Origin: Escherichia coli
GTDB lineage: Bacteria > Pseudomonadota > Gammaproteobacteria > Enterobacterales > Enterobacteriaceae
Strand: one strand, 5' to 3'
Assembly: GCF_044647545.1 (NCBI RefSeq)
Contig: NZ_CP172818.1
DNA: 64,000 bases
Below are positions 12,651 through 19,383 of this stretch, in pieces. Within the stretch, counting starts at the first letter, position 1. Every line of letters begins with the position of its first letter. The position numbers were made by a program, and so were the translations under genes. The notes below the pieces were generated by a model. That model was given only the letters and a program-made list of their open reading frames with translations. It did no database searches and had not been told where the DNA came from.

Positions 12651-14801
12651 TTAGTGGTGCGAAGAGATCTTCACGCCGCCTTCCGGGATTGGAACGTACG
12701 GTGTTTCTTTGTCAGTACGTTTGTCGCTGTTACGCACCGCAAGCCAGGTTTTGAAACCGTAGAAGATGATGCTGTACACCACAATCAGGAACAGAATACT
12801 CAGACCTGCGTTGGTGTAGTTGTTCACAACGATGTGGTTCATGTTGGCAATCTGCTGCGCCGTCAGGTCAGTACCGTTAGCAATCTTCTCTTTGTACTGG
12901 CTTGCCATGTAGAAGAAGCCTTCCATCTGCGGGTTGGTGCTGAACAGTTTCAGGCCCAGCGCCCAGGTGGTGCAGATAAGCAGCCATACAGCCGGAACAA
13001 CAGTTACCCAGATGTATTGGGTGCGCTTCATCTTAATCAGCACAACGGTGCCCAGTACCAGCGCTACGGCTGCCAGCATCTGGTTGGAAATACCGAACAG
13101 CGGCCACAGGCTCTTAACGCCGCCCAGCGGATCGACCACGCCCTGATACAGCAGGTAGCCCCACAGACCCACACAGCCCGCAGTACCGATGATACCGGCA
13201 ACCAGAGAGTCGGTTTTTTTCAGGAACGGGATGAAGTTACCCAGCAGGTCTTGCAGCATAAAGCGGCCAGAACGGGTACCCGCATCCAGCGCGGTCAGGA
13301 TGAACAGTGCTTCGAACAGAATACCGAAGTGATACCAGAAGCCCATGTCAGCCATCGGCAGCACTTTGTGGAACACGTGAGCGATACCTACCGCCAGCGT
13401 CGGCGCACCACCTGCACGGTTCAGGACAGAAGGCTCACCAATGTCTTTCGCGGTTTGCAGGATCTGCTCTGGCGAAATCACGAAGCCCCAGGAGCTGACG
13501 GTCGCTGCCGCGTGTGCGGTAACGTCTTTCAGCTGCGCCATGATGATCGGCGCGTTCTCGCCACCCATTTCATGCAGGTTAGGCATGGTGATGCCAAGGC
13601 CAGCAGGCGGGGTGTTCATCGCGAAGTAAAGACCCGGTTCGATGATGGACGCAGCAACCAGCGCCATAATCGCCACGAAGGACTCCATCAGCATTGCGCC
13701 GTAGCCGATGAAACGCGCGTCGGTTTCATTAGCCAGCAGTTTTGGCGTCGTACCGGAAGAGATCAGCGCGTGGAAGCCAGATACCGCACCACAGGCGATG
13801 GTGATGAACAGGAACGGGAACAGAGCGCCTTTCCACAGCGGGCCAGTACCGTCAATGTACTGGGTCATGGCAGGCATTTTCAGTTCCGGGTTCAGCACCA
13901 CGATACCCAGCGCCAGGCCGACGATAACGCCGATTTTCAGGAAGGTTGCCAGATAGTCGCGCGGTGCGAGGATCAGCCACACCGGCAGCAGTGCGGAAAC
14001 AAACGCATAGCCAATCAGCGCGAAGGTAATGGTGGTGTCTTTAAAGGTCAGTGCCGGACCCCAGTACGGATCGTGAGCAATCACGCCACCGAAGTAGATA
14101 GAGGCAACCAGCAGCACGATACCAATGACAGAGACTTCACCCACACGCCCCGGACGAATAAAGCGCATGTAGATACCCATAAACAGCGCAATCGGTACGG
14201 TTGAGCAAACGGTGAAGACACCCCACGGACTTTCGGCCAGGGCTTTAACCACAATCAGCGCCAGGACGGCGAGGATGATGATCATGATTAAGAAACAGCC
14301 AAACAGCGCGATAGTCCCCGGTACTGGTCCCATCTCTTCTTTGATCATCTCACCAAGAGATGCGCCATTACGGCGAGAGGAGATAAACAGCACCATAAAG
14401 TCCTGAACCGCACCGGCCAGCACGACCCCCGCCAGCAGCCACAGCGTGCCAGGCAGGTAGCCCATCTGCGCGGCGAGAACCGGACCCACCAGCGGACCAG
14501 CACCGGCGATAGCGGCGAAGTGGTGACCAAACAACACGTAACGGTTGGTCGGAACGTAGTTCAGACCGTCGTTGTTAATAACCGCAGGCGTCGCGCGCGT
14601 GGGGTCGAGTTTCATCACCTTCTGGGCGATGTACAGACTGTAGTAGCGATACGCCACCAGATACACCGATACAGAGGCGACCACGATCCACAGGGCGCTG
14701 ACGTGCTCCCCCCGACGTAATGCAACTACCGCGAGGCAGAATGCACCGATGATTCCGAGAATCACCCAGGGTATGTGCTTGAATATCTTTTTAGTATCCA
14801 T
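12651..14801 (-). CDS. btsT: pyruvate/H+ symporter, CstA family
   Basis: 716-aa polytopic ORF starting MDTKKIFKHIPWVILG; recognised as BtsT (YjiY). Confidence 0.9.
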   Translation of the reverse strand: MDTKKIFKHIPWVILGIIGAFCLAVVALRRGEHVSALWIVVASVSVYLVAYRYYSLYIAQKVMKLDPTRATPAVINNDGLNYVPTNRYVLFGHHFAAIAGAGPLVGPVLAAQMGYLPGTLWLLAGVVLAGAVQDFMVLFISSRRNGASLGEMIKEEMGPVPGTIALFGCFLIMIIILAVLALIVVKALAESPWGVFTVCSTVPIALFMGIYMRFIRPGRVGEVSVIGIVLLVASIYFGGVIAHDPYWGPALTFKDTTITFALIGYAFVSALLPVWLILAPRDYLATFLKIGVIVGLALGIVVLNPELKMPAMTQYIDGTGPLWKGALFPFLFITIACGAVSGFHALISSGTTPKLLANETDARFIGYGAMLMESFVAIMALVAASIIEPGLYFAMNTPPAGLGITMPNLHEMGGENAPIIMAQLKDVTAHAAATVSSWGFVISPEQILQTAKDIGEPSVLNRAGGAPTLAVGIAHVFHKVLPMADMGFWYHFGILFEALFILTALDAGTRSGRFMLQDLLGNFIPFLKKTDSLVAGIIGTAGCVGLWGYLLYQGVVDPLGGVKSLWPLFGISNQMLAAVALVLGTVVLIKMKRTQYIWVTVVPAVWLLICTTWALGLKLFSTNPQMEGFFYMASQYKEKIANGTDLTAQQIANMNHIVVNNYTNAGLSILFLIVVYSIIFYGFKTWLAVRNSDKRTDKETPYVPIPEGGVKISSHH

Positions 14802-14957
14802 AGTAAAACCTGGCATGTATTGATTAATAGTTGGCCGAAGCCGTTCTAGGTTTGCGTTGCGTTTGAGGAGGTAAATTGACCGCTATCCTGTAGTGATGTT
14901 GCCAGAGTTACGCGCGCGTAAAGTAAGGTAAATAACTGAGTGGTTATTTTAGGGATG

Positions 14958-14985
14958 TAAGCGGTCAGTTTTGCGGTTGAGCGGC
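14958..14985 (-). promoter_or_regulatory. direct repeats matching the BtsR (YehT) LytTR-type motif upstream of btsT
   Basis: Minus-strand reading gives GCCGCTCA-N12-ACCGCTTA; compared with the published ACC(G/A)CT(C/T)A repeat from memory. Confidence 0.45.
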
Positions 14986-15013
14986 AAAGGCGTCGTTTAA
15001 GTGACGATAAATA

Positions 15014-15029
15014 TGTGATTCATATCACA
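15014..15029. promoter_or_regulatory. CRP binding site TGTGA-N6-TCACA
   Basis: Perfect consensus half-sites tgtgattcatatcaca in the btsT-tsr intergenic region. Confidence 0.6.
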
Positions 15030-15120
15030 TATTTATATTGTGAATAATTTATGTAAATAATGGCTTTTTAAATTCAGAGTGTGAATAAAATTACTCGGCG
15101 TAATCTCCGCGGGATATTCA

Positions 15121-15147
15121 TAAAGTTTTTCCTTTCCAGGCCGAAAA
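15121..15147 (+). promoter_or_regulatory. sigma-28 (FliA) promoter for tsr
   Basis: TAAAGTTT-N11-GCCGAAAA about 30 bp upstream of the tsr ATG, matching the class III flagellar/chemotaxis promoter consensus. Confidence 0.7.
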
Positions 15148-15177
15148 TCTTGCATCGGTCCACAGGAAAGAGAAACC

Positions 15178-16842
15178 ATGTTAAAACGTATCAAAATTGT
15201 GACCAGCTTACTGCTGGTTTTGGCCGTTTTTGGCCTTTTACAACTGACATCAGGCGGTCTGTTCTTTAATGCCTTAAAGAATGACAAAGAAAATTTCACT
15301 GTTTTACAAACCATTCGCCAGCAGCAATCCACGCTGAATGGCAGCTGGGTCGCGTTGTTGCAGACGCGTAACACCCTCAACCGCGCGGGTATCCGCTACA
15401 TGATGGATCAGAATAATATTGGTAGCGGTTCAACCGTTGCTGAGCTGATGCAGAGTGCCAGTATTTCGCTGAAACAGGCGGAAAAAAACTGGGCGGATTA
15501 CGAAGCGTTGCCGCGTGACCCGCGTCAGAGCACCGCCGCAGCGGCAGAGATCAAACGTAATTACGATATTTATCACAATGCGCTGGCGGAGCTGATCCAA
15601 CTGTTAGGTGCAGGCAAAATCAACGAGTTCTTTGATCAGCCGACTCAGGGATATCAGGACGGTTTCGAGAAGCAGTATGTGGCTTACATGGAACAAAACG
15701 ATCGGCTCCATGATATCGCCGTCAGCGATAACAATGCCTCCTACAGCCAGGCGATGTGGATTCTGGTGGGCGTGATGATCGTCGTACTGGCGGTCATCTT
15801 CGCCGTCTGGTTCGGTATTAAAGCCTCGCTGGTAGCGCCAATGAATCGCCTGATTGACAGCATTCGTCATATTGCAGGCGGCGATCTGGTGAAACCGATT
15901 GAGGTGGATGGCTCTAATGAGATGGGGCAACTGGCAGAGAGTTTGCGCCATATGCAGGGAGAGCTGATGCGTACCGTCGGTGATGTGCGCAACGGGGCCA
16001 ATGCCATCTATAGCGGTGCCAGCGAAATCGCTACCGGCAATAACGATCTCTCTTCGCGCACCGAGCAACAGGCTGCTTCGCTGGAAGAGACGGCAGCCAG
16101 CATGGAGCAACTGACCGCAACGGTGAAACAGAACGCCGAGAATGCGCGCCAGGCCAGCCACCTGGCGTTAAGTGCTTCTGAAACGGCGCAACGCGGCGGC
16201 AAAGTGGTAGATAACGTGGTGCAGACTATGCGTGATATCTCCACCAGTTCGCAGAAAATCGCCGATATTATCAGCGTAATTGACGGCATTGCCTTCCAGA
16301 CCAATATTCTGGCTTTGAACGCGGCGGTTGAAGCAGCGCGTGCGGGTGAGCAAGGACGTGGTTTTGCGGTGGTTGCGGGAGAAGTGCGTAATCTGGCCCA
16401 GCGTAGCGCCCAGGCGGCTCGTGAAATTAAAAGCCTGATTGAAGACTCGGTGGGGAAAGTGGATGTTGGCTCTACGCTGGTCGAAAGCGCCGGGGAAACA
16501 ATGGCGGAGATTGTCAGTGCTGTGACCCGCGTGACGGACATTATGGGCGAAATTGCTTCTGCTTCTGATGAGCAGAGCCGTGGTATCGATCAGGTTGGCT
16601 TAGCGGTTGCTGAGATGGACCGGGTAACTCAACAGAACGCCGCGCTGGTGGAAGAATCTGCCGCCGCCGCCGCCGCGCTGGAAGAGCAGGCCAGTCGCCT
16701 GACCGAAGCAGTGGCAGTGTTCCGGATTCAGCAACAGCAGCAACAGCAGCGTGAAACATCGGCTGTGGTAAAAACCGTGATGCCAGCTGCGCCGCGTAAA
16801 ATGGCCGTGGCAGATAGCGGTGAGAACTGGGAAACGTTTTAA
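15178..16842 (+). CDS. tsr: methyl-accepting chemotaxis protein I (serine sensor)
   Basis: 554-aa ORF with HAMP and MCP signalling domain, C-terminal NWETF pentapeptide; carries a 7-Gln tract near the C-terminus. Confidence 0.9.
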
Positions 16843-16852
16843 TCGCCATAAA

Positions 16853-16884
16853 AATGCCCGATAAGCAAAATGTTATCGGGCATA
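16853..16884. terminator. bidirectional hairpin between convergent tsr and lgoT
   Basis: Inverted repeat gcccgataa ... ttatcgggc. Confidence 0.5.
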
Positions 16885-16890
16885 GGGAGA

Positions 16891-18252
16891 TTAATCTTTC
16901 CGTGGGTCGTTGATCGGCTGACGAACCAGGAAGATGTACGCCAGTGCCCCCGCTGCGGTGACGCAACCGCAGATGATTAGTGCCAGACGGAATGAGTGGG
17001 TGGTATCAACAATAAAACCAGTAATGATCGGCGCAAAAGAGGCGCAGATGAAGCTGGCAAAGTTCTGGATACTGCCCACCGACGCAGTCATGCGAGAAGC
17101 AACTGCGACGTGGATCAAGCCCCAGCAGGATGTTCCGGCAAAGTGAATACAGAACAGTGCCATACCAATCAGCAGAACCGCTGTCATGGATGTTGTCGCT
17201 TGCGGTACGACCAGCGTAAAGGCGGCAGAACAGAACATCCCGGCAATAATGCAGATCTTACGGCTTTTAATCGGAGCCATTCCCCCTTTGACCAGCCAGT
17301 CAGTAACGTAACCGTTGACCAGCATCCCGGCAGCCCCAAACAGGAAAGGGATAGCCGCCATCAACCCTGTGCTTTTTAAATCCAGGTTATAGGCTGTTTG
17401 CAGGTAACCAGGAAGCCAGGCCAGATACAGCCACGCAGTGTAGTTGATGCCACTGAATCCGAGCATCATTCCCCACATTGTGCGGTTACGGAACAAGCTG
17501 CGCCATTCGGCAAAACTGAGCGGATCTCGGCGGGCATTGACGCTACCTGCATTGAGATAAGCTTGTTCAACGGCAGTCAGTTCTACGTGCTCGCGGTTGC
17601 GATAGAGCATATACCAGCCGATGGCGAGAAAAATCCCCAGTACACCAATGGTAATAAACATCCCGCGCCAGCCCATCACCAGCATCATCGCCGCCAGAAT
17701 CGGTGGGCTTACGGCAACGCCAATGGTAGAAGCTGCGTTGAAGAAGCCCATCGGGCGTCCGCGCTCTTTGATGTTGAACCAGTCGTTAATGACTTTTACA
17801 CCGCATGGGTTCATCGGCGCTTCACCAATTCCCATACCGATACGCACCAACACGAACTGCGTAAAGCTGTGCACCATGCCAGACATTGCCTGGAACAGTG
17901 ACCAGAAGAACATCCCCAGTCCCAACATCAGGCGCGGGCCTTTACGATCCAATAGTGGGCCGCAAGGAAGTTGCGCAATCCCGTAAGCGAGTGAAAACAC
18001 GGAGAGCAAAGCGCCGATTTCGGTGGCACTTAATCCCAATTCTTCACGAATCGTTAAATTTGCTACCGACAGCGAACTGCGGTCGAGATAATTGATTACC
18101 GCCGCAAAAAATAATAACAACATGGCGGTGGTTTGAATGCGTTTAATTCGGGTACTGCGTTGAACTAATCCATCTGGTGGCACGGGAATATCTGCCGACG
18201 AAGATGGAGTAAATGAAGAACGCGGATCGAGGGTGATATTTTCTTTTTCCAC
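16891..18252 (-). CDS. lgoT: L-galactonate MFS transporter
   Basis: 453-aa MFS ORF recognised as YjjL/LgoT. Confidence 0.85.
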   Translation of the reverse strand: MEKENITLDPRSSFTPSSSADIPVPPDGLVQRSTRIKRIQTTAMLLLFFAAVINYLDRSSLSVANLTIREELGLSATEIGALLSVFSLAYGIAQLPCGPLLDRKGPRLMLGLGMFFWSLFQAMSGMVHSFTQFVLVRIGMGIGEAPMNPCGVKVINDWFNIKERGRPMGFFNAASTIGVAVSPPILAAMMLVMGWRGMFITIGVLGIFLAIGWYMLYRNREHVELTAVEQAYLNAGSVNARRDPLSFAEWRSLFRNRTMWGMMLGFSGINYTAWLYLAWLPGYLQTAYNLDLKSTGLMAAIPFLFGAAGMLVNGYVTDWLVKGGMAPIKSRKICIIAGMFCSAAFTLVVPQATTSMTAVLLIGMALFCIHFAGTSCWGLIHVAVASRMTASVGSIQNFASFICASFAPIITGFIVDTTHSFRLALIICGCVTAAGALAYIFLVRQPINDPRKD

Positions 18253-18468
18253 GCCGGACTCCTGTATTTATAATTTTAATTGTTTACGTAATTGTGCATT
18301 ACGCAAGGTTGACATTAACGGCAGGTTAAAGTTTTAGGACTTTACTACCGCTCACAAAAAAACATTTTTAGTCGACTGATTGTGAGCATAGGTAAGCGGG
18401 AATTTTCCGGTATTTATCTTTTGATAAAACCGTGCACCCGCTAATAGTTTGCTGTTTTTAATCCGTAC

Positions 18469-19383
18469 TTAATGAGCATAACGCATGTTCTCATTAATGG
18501 ATCGAATCATTGATTGTTTAGCTGAATTCAAATGGTTACGGAGCGCAAGGGTGGCATCAAGGTCACTGCGGCAAATCAGAGCGCTGAGAATGGTCATATG
18601 CTCATCGACGGCAATGATATTGCGCTGTTTAAGATCGCTTTCGTCCCATTGATAGTGAAAATGAAAGATGACTGATATGATCTCAAGCGATTGTTCAAAA
18701 AAGATATTGTCGGCAGCTGAAAGCAGTAAGGAGTGAAAATCTCTGTCAAGTTGCGAGAACATGCGAAAGCTATTGCCGATGTTGTCACGCAGTAGCCTGT
18801 GACGTTCGAGCATGGTTTTCGCCTGCAGCCAGCGGGGATCATGATCAGGCAGGTTGAGAAAGTGCTGAAGTGAATGTGTTTCGAGCATTTCGCGTAGCTC
18901 AAACAGCTGCTCGGCGTAGGATTGATCGAATTGCTTCATGCTCCACTGGCCGCGCTTTTCGCTTTGAATAAGATTATAACGGCCGAATTTTAAAAGATAT
19001 TCTCTTACAACCACCGGGCTGACACCCGCGGCCCGAGCCAGTTGCAGTTCAGAAAAAGTTTCCCCTGGGCGTAACTGGCGCTGGTTTATCATCGTGAAAA
19101 AAGCCTGCTCAAACACTTTGTTTTGTTCACTCATTGAAGCGGTAGTACAGGCGAAACCGTCATCATGGTCAGGTTTACGCGCAATAACATAGTCGTTTCC
19201 AACCTGCGTTAAGACGCCGCATTCGCGTAAGTGGCTGAGAATATGACGCACTGTAGTGCGGCTGATGTTGTACATTTCCGCCAGCGCACTTTGCGATGGA
19301 AGTGGGGAAGGGATATGACCCCGCGCCATATCATCAATGACCTGGTTAATCACATTGTGGCGTAAATTTTGTGAACGACTCAT
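18469..19383 (-). CDS. lgoR: GntR-family regulator of L-galactonate catabolism
   Basis: 304-aa ORF with N-terminal wHTH; recognised as YjjM/LgoR. Confidence 0.85.
   Translation of the reverse strand: MSRSQNLRHNVINQVIDDMARGHIPSPLPSQSALAEMYNISRTTVRHILSHLRECGVLTQVGNDYVIARKPDHDDGFACTTASMSEQNKVFEQAFFTMINQRQLRPGETFSELQLARAAGVSPVVVREYLLKFGRYNLIQSEKRGQWSMKQFDQSYAEQLFELREMLETHSLQHFLNLPDHDPRWLQAKTMLERHRLLRDNIGNSFRMFSQLDRDFHSLLLSAADNIFFEQSLEIISVIFHFHYQWDESDLKQRNIIAVDEHMTILSALICRSDLDATLALRNHLNSAKQSMIRSINENMRYAH

Follow-up and report, generated by a model that had tools for sequence, protein, structure and literature searches.

The genes btsT and tsr, which RefSeq labels on identical DNA as a pyruvate/proton symporter and a methyl-accepting chemotaxis protein, respectively, diverge from a 376-bp intergenic region (positions 14802–15177, with btsT on the minus strand and tsr on the plus strand) in a 64,000-nucleotide stretch of Escherichia coli DNA, referred to here as the window. 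An original prediction, made from the sequence of the window, described this interval as a dense divergent regulatory region containing three elements: a perfect cAMP-CRP site, direct repeats on the btsT side that resemble the LytTR motif of BtsR (also named YehT), and a sigma-28 promoter for tsr. The question that this locus raises is whether these elements constitute one control block shared by the two genes or belong to each gene separately. All three elements are present where they had been predicted to lie and occur far above chance (Table 1). The description of the region as dense and divergent holds for the presence of the elements but not for a single, densely shared block, as the interval is composed of two modules with an unconserved spacer between them. 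The best explanation of the locus, including the mechanism set out below, and one that is held with high confidence, is a pair of independent promoter modules that stand back to back, with functionless spacer DNA between them.

Table 1. Features of the btsT–tsr region, in window coordinates; positions relative to btsT refer to the literature transcription start.
Feature	Position	Strand	Basis
btsT (yjiY) coding sequence, pyruvate/H+ symporter, 716 aa	12651..14801	-	RefSeq, open reading frame list
btsT start codon, ATG	14801..14799	-	RefSeq
Putative Shine-Dalgarno-like AGG of btsT, within the conserved block CCAGGTTTTACTATG	14809..14811	-	Sequence and alignment
btsT transcription start from the literature (MG1655 4591367), 88-nt 5' UTR	14889	-	Mapped via MG1655 alignment
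Candidate extended -10 of the btsT promoter, TGgCAACAT, -15..-7	14896..14904	-	Assignment from position and conservation
BtsR/YehT repeat M1, ACCACTCA, -55..-48	14937..14944	-	Zero-mismatch pair with M2; inside published oligonucleotide
BtsR/YehT repeat M2, ACCGCTTA, -76..-69, 13-bp spacer to M1	14958..14965	-	Zero-mismatch pair; inside published oligonucleotide
Third repeat M3, GCCGCTCA, -96..-89, 12-bp spacer to M2	14978..14985	-	One mismatch; inside published oligonucleotide
cAMP-CRP binding site, TGTGATTCATATCACA, centre 15021.5	15014-15029	.	Perfect TGTGA-N6-TCACA
Unconserved AT-rich spacer, 87 bp, site of hpa and other inserts	15030-15116	.	Alignment
sigma-28 (FliA) class 3 tsr promoter: -35 TAAAGTTT, 11-nt spacer, -10 GCCGAAAA	15121-15147	+	Motif scan
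tsr coding sequence, serine chemoreceptor, 554 aa	15178..16842	+	Open reading frame list, RefSeq on identical DNA

Boundaries and Identity of the Intergenic Region

The interval was originally placed at 14817–15177. The right edge of this assignment is correct, and the left edge should be moved to 14802, 15 bp further left, because btsT starts at 14801. A longer btsT open reading frame of 721 aa, beginning at an in-frame ATG at 14816, is opposed by the RefSeq start and by conservation: that ATG has no counterpart in the other species' consensus, and the block CCAGGTTTTACTATG is conserved. Orthologues of BtsT with 90–100% amino-acid identity are found in 80 species. Beyond btsT lie yjiX and yjiA, and beyond tsr lie lgoT and lgoR, as annotated by RefSeq on identical E. 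coli DNA. The Tsr protein encoded in the window is 554 aa long, compared with 551 aa in MG1655.

When window positions 14500–15500 were compared with complete E. coli genomes by megablast, the intergenic region was 100% identical to E. coli chromosomes. With respect to MG1655, a 1-bp indel in the spacer is the sole difference across the interval: one C of MG1655 is missing near position 15107 (AAAATT-ACTCGG in the window, AAAATTCACTCGG in MG1655), a single-base difference in unconserved spacer that is probably neutral. The claim that this part of the window is native is borne out both by the identity to E. coli chromosomes and by the compact divergent layout, which is common to Salmonella, Citrobacter, Kosakonia, Phytobacter, and other genera.

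Activator Sites and Promoter of btsT

Conservation of the btsT elements was assessed in a protein-seeded scan with one genome per species, which yielded 80 btsT loci from Escherichia to Rahnella and Erwinia (Enterobacterales), 77 of which had enough upstream DNA to be usable. The CRP site is the single perfect TGTGA-N6-TCACA in the 64-kb window, for which 0.04 occurrences are expected. With a single mismatch tolerated, CRP-like sites are about as frequent as chance predicts (3 observed versus 1.6), and the information is therefore carried by the perfection of this particular site. By our own count, the site matches AAATGTGATCTAGATCACATTT at 17 of 22 positions, with both half-sites being perfect. 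Of the 77 species, 74 have a CRP site with no more than one mismatch, and across the 72 species that were aligned the identity of the two half-sites to the window is 0.88 and 0.99, versus 0.40 for the flanking DNA.

The perfect CRP site of the original prediction is confirmed as unique in the window, and published reporter data agree with it, in that the activity of a btsT promoter-lux fusion is completely abolished by deletion of crp (PMC7730263). In addition, yjiY is among the top Crp predictions of PhyloScan, and the Reg-Seq supplement, which draws on RegulonDB, gives the annotated sites for yjiY as 'BtsR CRP', adding that CRP is 'outside of area' (PMC7567609). Neither yjiY nor tsr is named in the main text of a genomic SELEX study of CRP (PMC3105977). 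The centre of the CRP site lies at -132.5 from the literature btsT start and thus outside the canonical activating positions (class II, -41.5; class I, -61.5 to about -103.5). This non-canonical placement favours a role for CRP as a co-activator or architectural factor next to BtsR and does not speak against CRP binding.

The motif recognized by YehT reportedly consists of direct repeats of ACC[G/A]CT[C/T]A, a description attributed to Kraxenberger and colleagues in 2012, who are also said to have reported, in the Journal of Bacteriology, that the yjiY promoter is controlled by YehU/YehT. In LytTR sites in general, such as those of AgrA and VirR, a spacing of 12–13 bp is typical. The three repeats upstream of btsT, M1–M3, are all on the btsT strand and span -96 to -48 from the literature start, just upstream of the -35 region. 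The arrangement ACCGCTTA-N13-ACCACTCA (minus strand, 14965..14937) is the sole paired match in the window, with 0.00 expected and none in shuffled sequences, and the lone 8-mer ACCRCTYA occurs 10 times against 6 expected, which is not a significant excess. The repeats that had been predicted on the btsT side are further confirmed by the oligonucleotide published as the 'yjiY YehT binding site', which served as such in surface plasmon resonance work; it corresponds to window positions 14933–14990 on the minus strand and contains all three repeats (PMC4847170).

The repeat pair is found in 77 of 77 btsT loci and the chained triple in 76, and this conservation of repeats upstream of btsT orthologues agrees with an earlier report (PMC5552118). 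Mean identity to the window across the 72 species is 0.92 for M1, 0.95 for M2, and 0.77 for M3, the lower value for M3 arising because the first base of this repeat is atypical in the window itself. The window has a G at this position (14985), which is found in only 3% of the species, and the alignment consensus is A. An A is likewise present in E. coli that carry the hpa cluster (described below) and in most other species, and the K-12-type allele has G. On the basis of this base, the distal repeat M3 is slightly degenerate in the K-12-type allele, which might lower promoter strength in that haplotype.

The CRP site and the repeats are held in a fixed register. In 57 loci the CRP 16-mer begins 44 nt upstream of the distal repeat; this distance is 43 nt in 7 further loci and 45 nt in another 2, accounting for 66 of 74 loci, and the other 8 depart from the register by the length of a single repeat unit, exactly 20 nt. 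Tiles of 400 nt taken from these loci served as controls; of 1804 such tiles, 7 contain the repeat pair, 7 contain a CRP site, and none contains both. The spacers between the btsT elements have an identity of 0.35–0.40 across the 72 aligned species.

The transcription start of btsT used here, 4591367 on the reverse strand of MG1655, is the only experimentally validated start for yjiY according to the Reg-Seq supplement, a second-hand source that cites Kraxenberger 2012 (PMC7567609). Two yjiY starts, 4591397 and 4591367, are printed in files 1 and 11 of this supplement. If the value in file 1, 4591397, were used, M1 would overlap the -10/-35 region (at -25..-18) and the Reg-Seq window would take in the CRP site, contradicting that paper's own remark that CRP lies outside of the area. 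The printed value 4591397 is taken to be an error, as only 4591367 fits the conserved TG-extended -10. Entries for yjiY and tsr are absent among the rows listed in the transcription-start supplement of Kim 2012.

Upstream of this start, we infer an extended -10 element (Table 1), in which the TG is 96–100% conserved across 72 species and the A at position 2 and the T at position 6 of the hexamer are 100% conserved. The -35 region is poor (ACTTTA), as expected of an activator-dependent promoter. The btsT start went undetected in a generic sigma-70 scan; this too is expected of such a promoter, but it lends the assignment no independent support. A pairing of TTTACC as the -35 with TAACTC as the -10 was rejected, as the putative -10 is unconserved and does not fit the literature start.

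The carbon-starvation control of btsT invoked in the original prediction needs refining. The signal is not simply starvation; control is exerted by pyruvate sensing through BtsS/BtsR together with cAMP-CRP. Expression of btsT is tightly controlled by BtsS/BtsR and is post-transcriptionally repressed by CsrA (PMC7730263, PMC5431176).

The sigma-28 Promoter of tsr

On the other side of the interval, TAAAGTTT-N11-GCCGAAAA differs from the sigma-28 consensus, TAAAGTTT-N11-GCCGATAA, at one position and is the sole match in the window (0.06 expected). The motif begins at -57 from the tsr ATG, and the tsr transcript is predicted to start near 15154–15156. In all 35 loci in which tsr was found within 3 kb, the motif is located at -56 to -59 from the tsr ATG with no more than two mismatches; TAAAGTTT is invariant across these loci, and the 11-nt spacer is variable.

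The FliA ChIP-seq motif reported for the class 3 tsr promoter in MG1655, TAAAGTTTTTCCTTTCCAGGCCGAAAAT (28 nt), is identical to that of the window, with no difference in the promoter (Fitzgerald et al. 2014, PMC4183435). In the same study, the ChIP-seq score of 94 for tsr stands out among the rows listed, and tsr expression decreases from 630 to 9 in a fliA deletion, so that the predicted sigma-28 promoter and the assignment of tsr to the flagellar regulon are both upheld (PMC4183435). Genomic SELEX with the RpoF holoenzyme alone shows a peak in the yjiY/tsr spacer that maps to about window position 15130 (PMC5493296). Just past the tsr stop codon, at 16872–16899 on the minus strand, the window contains AAAGATTAATCTCCCTATGCCCGATAAC, which is one mismatch from a weak FliA ChIP-seq site of MG1655 described as 'tsr/yjiZ convergent' (score 3). 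Judging by this resemblance, AAAGATTAATCTCCCTATGCCCGATAAC may be an antisense or lgoT-side sigma-28 promoter.

The Spacer and the Assignment of the CRP Site

The hpa (4-hydroxyphenylacetate) cluster of E. coli W, B, and C is said to lie next to tsr and to be absent from K-12, an observation attributed to Prieto et al. in 1996. The insertion point of this cluster is the spacer of the btsT–tsr interval, and the window represents the empty, K-12-like form. Among 5426 complete E. coli genomes, 3115 have the compact arrangement seen in the window, and 2066 (~38%) carry the ~11-kb cluster, from hpaR to hpaC, between btsT and tsr. The cluster is found at the same place in Klebsiella, Raoultella, and some Citrobacter and Enterobacter, and other species have 1–1.7 kb of other DNA in the spacer. 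Whatever the arrangement, btsT keeps the CRP site and the repeats beside it at the same spacing, and the sigma-28 promoter is within 118 bp of tsr. A comparison of the compact form with an E. coli locus that contains hpa (locus L004, 6866–18555) shows that homology on the btsT side ends at 14966, save for the core of M3 and the CRP site (15011–15029), and resumes on the tsr side at 15117, with 4 nt left to the -35 box. An alignment of 21 compact loci shows no conserved columns in the stretch that separates the CRP site from the sigma-28 -35 box.

These arrangements bear directly on the possibility that one shared cAMP-CRP dimer activates both divergent promoters, as it does in some divergent operons. 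Sharing would accord with the location of the site ~133 bp from each start (14889 for btsT and ~15155 as predicted for tsr) and with the dependence of motility genes on cAMP-CRP, although this dependence runs through flhDC. It is opposed by the hpa cluster, which parts the CRP site from tsr in the 2066 E. coli genomes and in Klebsiella and others while the tsr sigma-28 promoter remains intact, and by the tsr-side homology of the two E. coli forms, which reaches no further than 4 nt upstream of the -35 box. Similarly, among species the CRP site lies at a variable distance from the tsr promoter but at a constant one from the BtsR repeats. FliA holoenzyme, moreover, binds the tsr promoter in SELEX without other factors (PMC5493296). 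A shared dimer is thus very unlikely. Because an inserted hpa cluster never parts it from btsT, the CRP site serves btsT and not tsr.

At 376 bp the intergenic region is rather long, and a hidden extra element, for instance a small RNA, a small protein, or a leader resembling a riboswitch, might explain its length. Mechanical open reading frames do overlap the interval (15033..15380 on the minus strand and 15081..15269 on the plus strand), and the AT-rich spacer contains weak sigma-70-like matches. These reading frames, however, fall in unconserved DNA or inside tsr; the sigma-70-like matches are not enriched (3 found versus 1.3 +/- 1.2 expected), and the generic sigma-70/terminator scan found no terminators. 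A search of positions 14000–16000 against Rfam in permissive E-value mode returned chance-level matches only (Pistol and NRON), with no family near threshold, the best being Pistol at 20.4 bits versus a gathering score of 34.5 (E = 0.73). The fold of the 88-nt btsT leader is no more stable than those of shuffled sequences (z = +1.42), and therefore no riboswitch-like element is proposed there. With the spacer at 15030–15116 being free of conserved columns and replaced wholesale in other genomes, an additional element of any of these kinds is highly improbable. That the motif matches are functionless chance occurrences in AT-rich intergenic DNA, as the counts of the lone 8-mer and of the one-mismatch CRP sites taken by themselves might suggest, is a reading of negligible probability, refuted by the uniqueness of the perfect CRP site, the paired repeat, and the bipartite sigma-28 motif against expectations of 0.04, 0.00, and 0.06, by the conservation of sequence and spacing over 35–77 species while flanking bases drift, and by the agreement of published binding and genetic data, including ChIP and reporter data.

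Two further observations concern the hpa-containing and related loci. In E. coli with hpa, a ~123-bp multi-copy repeat is located in the btsT 5' UTR, about 19 nt upstream of the ATG (L004, about 18412–18540, corresponding to the junction of window positions 14819 and 14820); it is absent from the window. This repeat is ERIC-like in appearance and has a median of 8 copies per genome. With it, the btsT leader would grow from 88 to ~211 nt, with possible effects on translation or on control by CsrA. In Escherichia sp. MOD1-EC7003 (L006), only HpaC residues 134–170 are left beside btsT, at -383..-273, which suggests that this fragment is a deletion remnant and that the cluster was once present, and later lost, in at least some of the arrangements without hpa.

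Comparison with Related Promoters

The btsT side of the window is the same locus as the E. coli K-12 yjiY (btsT) promoter, which is controlled by YehU/YehT (that is, BtsS/BtsR), cAMP-CRP, and CsrA (PMC5431176), and the promoter module is identical in sequence to that of MG1655 throughout, with no material difference. The promoter of cstA, which encodes a paralogous pyruvate transporter, offers a second comparison (PMC7730263). Similar to btsT, cstA is a CstA-family gene that is cAMP-CRP-dependent, has an unusually distant CRP site, and is repressed by CsrA. At cstA, transcription relies on a plain sigma-70 promoter, the CRP site lies about 80 nt upstream, Fis acts as a repressor, and there is no LytTR regulator (PMC7730263), whereas btsT requires BtsR on direct repeats and has its CRP site further off, at about -132.5. 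The yhjX promoter, which is bound by YpdB, the other LytTR regulator of E. coli, resembles that of btsT in having short direct repeats upstream of the -35 (PMC4847170). The main differences are the sequence of the repeat, which is GGCATTTCAT for YpdB and ACCRCTYA for BtsR, and the presence of three copies at btsT in most species.

Proposed Mechanism

In the model of two independent modules, the pyruvate sensor BtsS would switch on BtsR, a LytTR-type response regulator, and phosphorylated BtsR would bind the three 8-bp direct repeats, which are arranged with a 20–21-bp period from about -96 to -48. BtsR would recruit sigma-70 RNA polymerase to the promoter formed by the extended -10 (TGgCAACAT) and the poor -35, with transcription starting at 14889. 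In this process, cAMP-CRP bound at -132.5 would serve as an obligatory co-activator of btsT. We conjecture that CRP acts from this position by bending the DNA or by contacting the BtsR array or the alpha subunit of polymerase; it would not be a classical class I or class II activator, because its fixed distance from the repeat array suggests bending or contact. Translation from the 88-nt btsT leader would additionally be repressed by CsrA, as described in the literature. At tsr, FliA-RNA polymerase would read the near-consensus sigma-28 promoter, 57–31 nt upstream of the tsr ATG, with no upstream sequence needed.

The essentials of this region are already in the literature and in RegulonDB-type annotation, and the region is an ordinary, already characterised E. 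coli control region with nothing new between the three sites. Its main value is as a positive control, in that the raw sequence alone reveals three textbook elements, correctly placed and consistent with ChIP-seq, reporter, and binding studies in the literature. This agreement shows that the window here consists of ordinary E. coli core chromosome, in the compact form that resembles K-12 and lacks hpa.

The additions made here are modest and mildly new. Beyond what the K-12 btsT literature describes, the third repeat is near-universal and is found together with CRP in a fixed register in ~75 Enterobacterales species, with CRP at the remote position of -132.5. The cross-species assignment of the CRP site to btsT and the recognition of the spacer as the place where other strains have gene clusters inserted are likewise additions. 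One possible, though tentative and somewhat less than probable, interpretation is that btsT is activated by a stereospecific nucleoprotein complex built from CRP at -132.5, the 43–45-nt register, and the three BtsR repeats, with the G of M3 tuning promoter strength relative to strains that carry hpa. As a corollary of the same tentative interpretation, the 87-bp spacer may be a recurrent insertion site because it is the sole dispensable DNA between two tightly delimited promoters. If such a complex does form, CRP would bend the DNA onto the LytTR array or contact the array directly.
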